NCBI RefSeq assembly: GCF_003334815.1
Contig: NZ_QOWO01000035.1
Source of the DNA: Escherichia coli
GTDB lineage: Bacteria; Pseudomonadota; Gammaproteobacteria; Enterobacterales; Enterobacteriaceae
Length of the DNA stretch: 39,681 nucleotides
Strand: one strand, 5' to 3'
Part shown: positions 30,623-32,230 of the stretch, one piece after another
How positions within the stretch are numbered: position 1 is the stretch's first letter
How the letters are laid out: each line of letters opens with the position of its first letter
The notes under the pieces: model-generated
The model's database searches: none
What the model saw: the letters and a program-made list of their open reading frames with translations, nothing else
What the model was told of the DNA's origin: nothing
Position numbers and translations under genes: made by a program

Positions 30623-32230
30623 ATGAAAGCAATTGACAATCAGATTAGAAACATCTCTTCAAGCCATCAAGATAAGCATTCAGATAAAGTTAACAGTCAT
30701 CAACACCATGGCAAGGTTGATAAAACACATCGTGCAAAGATAGTTGAATTTGATAAACTGGATAATGATTCGCAAATAGATAACGATTTTGGCCTGCATA
30801 TCATCTATTTCCTGCAACATGGTCACTGGAAGGTAAATGATCGTAGTCACCAGATGGAGAAAGTATGGTTTTATAATAGTGAACCTTCTATAGATATTCA
30901 AGAATATAATAGATTCGCCGACAATACTACTGATACGTTTATCTTTACAATTATACCAGACAATAACCATGTGTTAAAATTATCGTCTCCCATTACCGTT
31001 ACTGTTGAGTGTAAGGGCGGTTATTATTTTATTAATTCCTCTGGAGATAAATCAGATATAATTTATAAAGTTGATGGGCTTTCTATCATAGCGAGAAATT
31101 TCTTTACTCTTCTTAGTGGTAATTTCAAACCTGACTGGCGTTGGGATGTCTCTAAAGAGACGTTTACTAAGGAAAAGTTTGATAGCTATGTTAAATCTGT
31201 GTTTTCAAAAATAGACTTCTATAAACAGTGTGGTGTGATTAACCCACAAAATGCCAACACGGCTTATTTTGGCGATACAGATGGAAGAGTAGGCGCTGTA
31301 CTTTATGCATTGCTCGTTTCAGGGCATATAGGCATCAGGGAAAAGGGTTGGAGTTTATTATGTGAATTATTAAAACACGAAGAGATGGCTTCATCTGCAT
31401 ACAAACATAAAAATAATAAAGTGCTCTACGATTTATTAAATACGAGAGACATGATCTTGAATGAGTTGCATCAACATGTTTTTTTAAAGGACGATGCGAT
31501 AACCCCTTGTATCTTCCTTGGGGATCATACAGGCGATAGATTTAGTACTATTTTTGGTGATAAATATATCCTTACTTTGCTAAATTCTATGCGAAATATG
31601 GAGGGTAATAAAGATAGCCGTATTAATAAAAATGTCGTCGTTCTGGCTGGAAATCATGAAATCAATTTTAATGGTAACTATACTGCACGACTAGCAAATC
31701 ATAAACTCTCTGCCGGTGATACGTATAACTTAATTAAAACGCTCGATGTTTGTAATTATGACTCAGAAAGGCAAGTTTTAACCAGTCATCACGGAATAAT
31801 AAGAGATGAAGAAAAAAATGTTATTGTCTCGGTGCTTTGCAGGTTCCATTTAATCAGATGAAAAAATCCTACTGATCCTGAGGAATTAGCCAATATTTTT
31901 AATAAAAAACATAAAGAACACATGGATGATCCTCTATTCCATCTAATCCGAAGCAATACTTTGAAACCCACACCTGTATATGCTAATTATTTTGATAACA
32001 CTACTGATTTCAGACCAGCACGTGAACGTATCTTCATATGTGGGGAGACACTCAAAGGTGAAGACCCCAGCAAATACATTAGACAAAAATATGGGCATCA
32101 TGGGCCCGGGGTAGATCATAATCAACAATTTGATAATGGTATTATGGGGCTAAATTCCCTGAAGGAAGCACGTGATAAAAATAATAAAATAATTTATTCC
32201 TCAGGGCTTAGTTGTTTTCAACCACATTAA
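30623..32230 (+). pseudogene. yhiL: yhiJ paralog (DUF4049-type protein) interrupted by a single in-frame TGA at 31859-31861
   Basis: One reading frame runs from ATG 30623 to 32230 with exactly one stop (TGA, codon ~413); translation both before and after the stop aligns with YhiJ (before: FLGDHTGDRFS/LAGNHE; after: KNPTDPEELANIFNKKH vs YhiJ NALDPVELAAIINKKH). ORF track start 30587 is a TTG. Confidence 0.7.

Follow-up and report, generated by a model that had tools for sequence, protein, structure and literature searches.

The window, a stretch of 39,681 nucleotides from an Escherichia coli contig (NZ_QOWO01000035.1), carries the yhiL pseudogene at 30623..32230 on the + strand (1,608 nt), its CDS coordinates being transferred from the intact gene of FORC 064 and the pseudogene of 52F4. 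Downstream of it lies yhiJ (32492..34114, +), an intact paralogue whose 540 aa product is 33% identical to YhiL and which serves as a reference from within the window. GC content falls to 32-38% across the two genes, against 50-60% in their flanks (window positions 30000-34500), and the AT-rich island so formed fits horizontal acquisition. In strain NT1F34 (L001, 1-454) an IS1A transposase is found in place of yhiM, directly upstream of yhiL.

The papers found treat yhiL and yhiJ solely as genes of unknown function. The locus is listed with a potential SOS box (LexA box) (PMC6590174), with mild SOS induction (PMC11002266) and with a promoter island (PMC3661553). For yhiL, yhiK, yhiJ and DUF4049 the literature offers list entries only, with no discussion of the yhiL lesion found and DUF4049 going unmentioned in the top-ranked papers.

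The intact yhiL allele, as present in FORC 064 (WP_000643701.1), encodes a protein of 535 aa with two Pfam domains, DUF6860 (residues 40-164) and DUF4049 (residues 209-532). The repaired YhiL of the window matches both, with E-values of 1.4e-68 and 1.6e-197 respectively, and belongs to the YhiJ/YhiL family. As it stands in the window, the gene is read as an ORF of 424 aa (30587..31861, +), which begins at an upstream TTG and comprises the upstream part of yhiL, and an ORF of 102 aa (31922..32230, +) comprising the downstream part. Intact alleles are annotated as starting with the ATG at 30623, from which there are 412 codons before the stop, giving a truncated product of 412 aa. The premature stop is a TGA at 31859..31861 (+) with A as the base 3′ of it; both ORFs share one frame with this TGA and there is no second stop between them. 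To this extent the first-pass annotation is upheld by translation, as the in-frame TGA, the UGA-A stop context and the same-frame flanking ORFs are all as it described. It is also right that the text downstream of the stop still aligns with YhiJ (NPTDPEELANIFNKKH against NALDPVELAAIINKKH of YhiJ), and that yhiL is a recently inactivated gene. A single in-frame stop as the cause of inactivation is another matter, as two indels separate the window from the intact allele.

The first indication of this comes from translating the other frames across the lesion and comparing them with the in-window paralogue YhiJ. Between two poly-A runs, A7 at 31812..31818 and A6 at 31861..31866, the +1-shifted frame reads RKKCYCLGALQVPFNQMKK, which matches intact YhiL and aligns with RKRYIIGPITVSIDEMTN of YhiJ, while the window-frame text, NVIVSVLCRFHLIR and the stop, does not line up with YhiJ. 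A match of the shifted frame to YhiJ, where the in-frame text has none, pointed to a pair of opposite frameshifts and away from a nonsense substitution. Residue-by-residue comparison with the FORC 064 translation, together with three-frame translation, delimits 14 out-of-frame codons at 31817..31858 (+), where NVIVSVLCRFHLIR replaces KCYCLGALQVPFNQ. Over codons 399-413 the intact KCYCLGALQVPFNQM has become NVIVSVLCRFHLIR followed by the stop, with every position different from FORC 064. The TGA itself is an out-of-frame reading of cAG ATG AAa, which encodes Q412-M413 in intact alleles.

Comparison at the nucleotide level bears this out. Over window positions 29000-35000 (6,001 bases), exactly two 1-nt indels and zero substitutions distinguish the window from FORC 064. 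The first is a 1-nt deletion which leaves A7 (31812..31818, +) where the FORC 064 allele has A8 and shifts reading from codon 399; it lies 41 bases upstream of the stop. The second is a 1-nt insertion into an A5 run, giving A6 (31861..31866, +) and putting the downstream sequence back in the original frame. This run opens with the last base of the TGA, so the insertion sits at and after the stop, and the -1 and +1 indels are 49 nt apart. The same 6,001 bases differ from those of WP5-S17-ESBL-10, whose yhiL is annotated as 'frameshifted', solely by the extra A, and are identical to those of 52F4, whose yhiL is annotated as pseudo with an 'internal stop'. The locus thus has what defines a frameshift pseudogene: an intact orthologue exists, the indels are not multiples of three, and the result is an out-of-family reading with a premature stop. 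The apparent single in-frame stop of yhiL is a -1/+1 pair of homopolymer frameshifts. The earlier statement that the gene was disrupted by 'not a frameshift' followed from same-frame arithmetic, which hides such a pair.

A single point nonsense, whether by substitution or by a small duplication of FHLIR, that made an in-frame TGA in an otherwise intact frame would account for two same-frame ORFs with one stop between them, and it agrees with the label 'internal stop' that PGAP gives to the window allele. However, the 6-kb comparison with the intact allele contains indels only and not one substitution, and the 14 codons before the stop match no intact YhiL while those of the shifted frame do. 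We regard its probability as next to nil. A point-nonsense pseudogene is rejected, since no substitution is present and the codons leading up to the stop are read in the wrong frame.

The duplication part of this proposal rested on the peptide FHLIR, which does occur twice as had been noted, although not at a spacing of 20 codons; the second copy begins 26 codons past the stop and 31 past the first copy. Copy 1 (31844-31858, +) falls within the out-of-frame codons and is read as VPFNQ in intact alleles, while copy 2 (31937..31951, +) belongs to YhiL proper, where it makes up residues 439-443 of the intact protein. The two coding 15-mers agree at 13 of 15 nt, with no similarity on either side of them; about 20% of composition-matched (Markov) simulated genes hold at least one such pair within 120 nt. 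Moreover, every aligned allele, intact ones included (where the first site is in a different frame), has both sites and the intervening sequence, and the distance between the sites is equal in all ten aligned alleles, A-run length apart. A tandem or local duplication of FHLIR is accordingly rejected, there being no extra sequence relative to intact alleles, no extension and a chance expectation of about 20%. The "duplication" is a by-product of out-of-frame reading combined with a short chance nucleotide similarity.

The distribution of the two lesions was followed in 5,426 complete E. coli genomes. A megablast search with a 501-nt yhiL query located the locus in 4,171 of these; about 1,255 have no match to this segment. 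The allele alignment comprises the window and nine of the located genomes. In the intact alleles H19, O157:H7 and Ecol_224 the first site is 8 nt long, reading A8, AAAATGCA or AAAATAAA, and the second is A5, compared with A7 and A6 in the window. Exact matches of 95-97-nt queries show A8+A5, in which the frame is intact across both runs, in 1,685 genomes, and A7+A5 in 1,001, including K-12 MG1655 with its annotated pseudogene b4660. Other genomes thus carry a frameshift at this position where a point stop had been supposed, the 1,001 having the first frameshift only. The window allele, A7+A6, is found in just 6 genomes and A8+A6 in none of the 5,426. From these counts, including the zero for A8+A6, the order is A8+A5, then A7+A5, then A7+A6; we infer this order, and the neutrality of the second indel, from allele counts rather than from a phylogeny. 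The reverse order of events is rejected by the absence of A8+A6 from all 5,426 genomes. The uninterrupted A8 run is itself derived, as the corresponding site is AAAATAAA or AAAATGCA in other intact alleles (L005, L006, L008), encoding EENKC or EENAC; the base substitutions yielding EEKKC made the uninterrupted run that slipped later.

An allele as rare as 6 in 5,426 genomes raises the question of whether the extra A at 31861-31866 is a homopolymer error of sequencing or assembly in a strain that truly has the K-12-type A7+A5. Homopolymer length errors are common in long-read assemblies, and the sole RefSeq genome identical to the window over 6 kb is a single assembly, 52F4. Against this, A6 recurs in five further assemblies, produced by different laboratories from different hosts and countries, on a common haplotype that three SNPs set apart. 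The six A7+A6 RefSeq genomes are those of isolates from calf, cattle, pig, sheep and civet in Switzerland, France and China, and represent two near-identical haplotypes that are three SNPs apart in 5 kb. In addition, no RefSeq genome, 52F4 included, is identical to the window in its first 25 kb, so the window is a further independent assembly. With several A7+A6 genomes known and the window distinct from each, the extra A is inherited and does not stem from a one-off assembly error, and an error of this kind is considered very unlikely. In either case yhiL would be a frameshift pseudogene.

The consequences for the protein are best seen in the segment that is misread. Across eight aligned YhiL alleles, seven of them with 82-91% identity to that of FORC 064, codons 400-410 (CYCLGALQVPF) and 412-414 (QMK) show no variation, and residue 411 is N or K; Y401, G404, V408 and M413 are also common to YhiL and YhiJ. 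In an AF2 model of intact YhiL, residues 400-409 form a predicted beta-hairpin (pLDDT about 91) within a DUF4049 core (about residues 210-480) modelled with a pLDDT of 75-93. The truncated product is without residues 413-535, which include the near-invariant R464, P465 and H492. As these residues are missing and 14 wrong residues replace the conserved beta-hairpin, the product of the window allele would be non-functional.

These features also bear on the idea that yhiL is still expressed by recoding, through UGA readthrough, selenocysteine insertion, or ribosomal or transcriptional slippage, to give a low level of full-length protein. Termination at UGA is comparatively weak in E. coli when the next base is A, the heptamer A AAA AAT is of a slippery-like kind, and RNA polymerase can slip to some extent on A7 runs. 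However, UGA readthrough would not rescue the protein, because the 14 codons preceding the stop are still wrong in an invariant core segment, and a return to the wild-type sequence requires two independent opposite slips in one molecule. The RNA of 31800-31930 folds no better than shuffled sequence (z = +1.23), and an Rfam scan of 30300-32600 gave no match, SECIS elements included, apart from a sub-threshold hit to C0719. Nor is the configuration conserved, being found in 6 of 5,426 genomes, with a plain uninterrupted ORF as the majority allele. Taken together, continued expression by recoding appears extremely unlikely, and low-level UGA readthrough, which had been offered as an alternative to pseudogenisation, finds no support in RNA structure or Rfam elements and meets the 14 wrong residues before the stop. 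Some yhiL product may nonetheless be made at a low level from the window allele.

Two specific forms of recoding are rejected. Selenocysteine or programmed UGA recoding is discarded for want of a 3′ structure or Rfam match and with the in-frame UGA in only 6 of 5,426 genomes. A gene using programmed frameshifting or transcriptional slippage is likewise discarded, as the majority allele is one ORF, a stimulatory structure is absent and two opposite shifts are required. As for the C0719 sRNA match, it lies within the yhiL coding region at 30889-30978 (+) with 18.5 bits (E 0.11), short of the gathering score of 50, and is probably due to chance.

The frequencies of the two lengths of the first run invite a further explanation, in which A8 is a contingency (phase-variable) tract with yhiL ON at A8 and OFF at A7, and the window allele is an OFF state with a second slip. 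In its fullest form, the tract would be a hypermutable ON/OFF switch for a horizontally acquired WipA/WipB-like phosphatase, with A7 alleles such as that of K-12 as reversible OFF states and not dead genes, and the window allele locked OFF by its second slip. Tract length is polymorphic among close relatives, as at contingency loci, with A8 and A7 both occurring on a 6-kb haplotype otherwise identical to the window; both lengths are frequent (1,685 against 1,001 genomes), and A7 occurs also on a divergent haplotype (L004 and L009). Recombination, however, could spread one A7 event between haplotypes. A search of the genome collection found no A8 version of the K-12-specific haplotype and thus no evidence of reversion. 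The tract is not conserved either, many intact alleles having a run interrupted as AAAATGCA or AAAATAAA, and in other lineages the gene is inactivated in unrelated ways (by stops at codon 16 or codon 361, or by other frameshifts), which fits decay and not switching. Both the phase-variable reading and its extension to a phosphatase switch are held to be very unlikely. The caveat is that, with A8 or A7 on identical 6-kb haplotypes, the first run could switch more often than one-way decay implies.

The individual lesions of other lineages are varied. In L002, an A8+A5 allele, a frameshift precedes codon 288; BUCT2930 (L003) has a stop at codon 16, L004 and L009 have one at codon 361 in addition to A7, and L008 has a late frameshift. 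In L009 yhiJ is frameshifted too. The gene is decaying repeatedly across E. coli lineages. YhiL also shows an unusually high allelic diversity in E. coli and Shigella, with 80-99% amino-acid identity. The mosaic look of its N-terminal (MKAIDNQ or MKVFHNIF) and C-terminal segments, together with an indel of 6 codons near residue 480, suggests recombination or diversifying selection at the locus.

The reading preferred here, to which we give a probability of about 93%, is that yhiL of the window is a pseudogene resulting from two successive slippage indels in poly-A runs, with replication slippage in the homopolymers as the probable mutational mechanism. An intact ancestor would have read GAA GAA AAA AAA TGT (A8) and CAG ATG AAA AAT (A5). 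Loss of one A from the A8 run would have put the codons from 399 out of frame and brought a TGA into play 14 codons on, a one-lesion state that corresponds to the allele of K-12 MG1655. In a minor lineage, the already dead gene would then have gained one A in the A5 run that starts with the last base of the TGA. It is due to this added A that both ORFs appear in one frame, split by a single stop.

The gene is an ordinary, already annotated pseudogene with a rare second lesion; yhiL has pseudogene status in the K-12 annotation, and RefSeq marks the window allele as pseudo. The biological weight of the lesion is small. It does carry a caution for annotation, as an 'internal stop' between same-frame ORFs can hide two compensating homopolymer frameshifts, and hypotheses of stop-codon readthrough should first be compared with an intact orthologue.

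The closest known counterpart is yhiL of K-12 MG1655 (b4660, 1,607 nt), which occupies the same locus and shares the inactivating A8-to-A7 deletion. It differs from the window gene at 2 positions in 1,608 nt, these being the extra A and one T/C difference. With A5 at its second run, the K-12 gene does not regain the frame downstream and is labelled 'frameshifted' by PGAP, whereas A6 in the window returns the frame so that the lesion looks like one internal stop. The window allele also resembles compensated double frameshift alleles, in which -1 and +1 indels lie a few dozen bases apart in mononucleotide runs and the net frame is kept. In those, the protein is full length with a short altered stretch, while in the window a TGA occurs in the shifted stretch and the compensation fails.

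With regard to the ancestral protein, a Foldseek search of PDB structures with the AF2 model of intact YhiL returned WipA/WipB, PPP-like metallophosphatase effectors of Legionella pneumophila (PDB 5y9o, 5n6x, 5nny), as the best and only significant matches (E 6.6e-6 to 3.3e-4, probability 1.00). The likeness comes from the fold search alone, a sequence search of the PDB giving no match for YhiL; NCBIfam gave nothing for YhiL and, for YhiJ, a hit to T4SS_Wip that is far sub-threshold. The family is very narrow, with 50 representative clusters matched of 1.84 billion proteins, most of them YhiL fragments, and very few full-length relatives were seen outside Escherichia and Shigella.

The DUF4049 domains of YhiL and YhiJ carry the motifs GDTDG, GDHTGDR, GNHE and HHG. 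When checked against the PPP signature (DxH, GDxxDR, NHE), YhiL has GDHTGDR and GNHE, with GDTDG as its first motif. The WipB motifs are GDLHA, GDELVDR and NHG (PMC5572681), to which GDTDG, GDHTGDR and GNHE of YhiL would correspond, and GDHTGDR has the GDxxxDR spacing of GDELVDR in WipB (PMC5572681). There are differences between the two systems, as sequence identity is 13-15% with TM-scores of only 0.43-0.45, the first motif of YhiL has D where PPPs carry H, and the N-terminal DUF6860 domain of YhiL differs from WipA/WipB. Judged by the model and these motifs, DUF4049 in YhiL and YhiJ resembles a PPP-type metallophosphatase, and the likeness to WipA/WipB is a lead, open to testing, on what these two E. 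coli genes of unknown function do.
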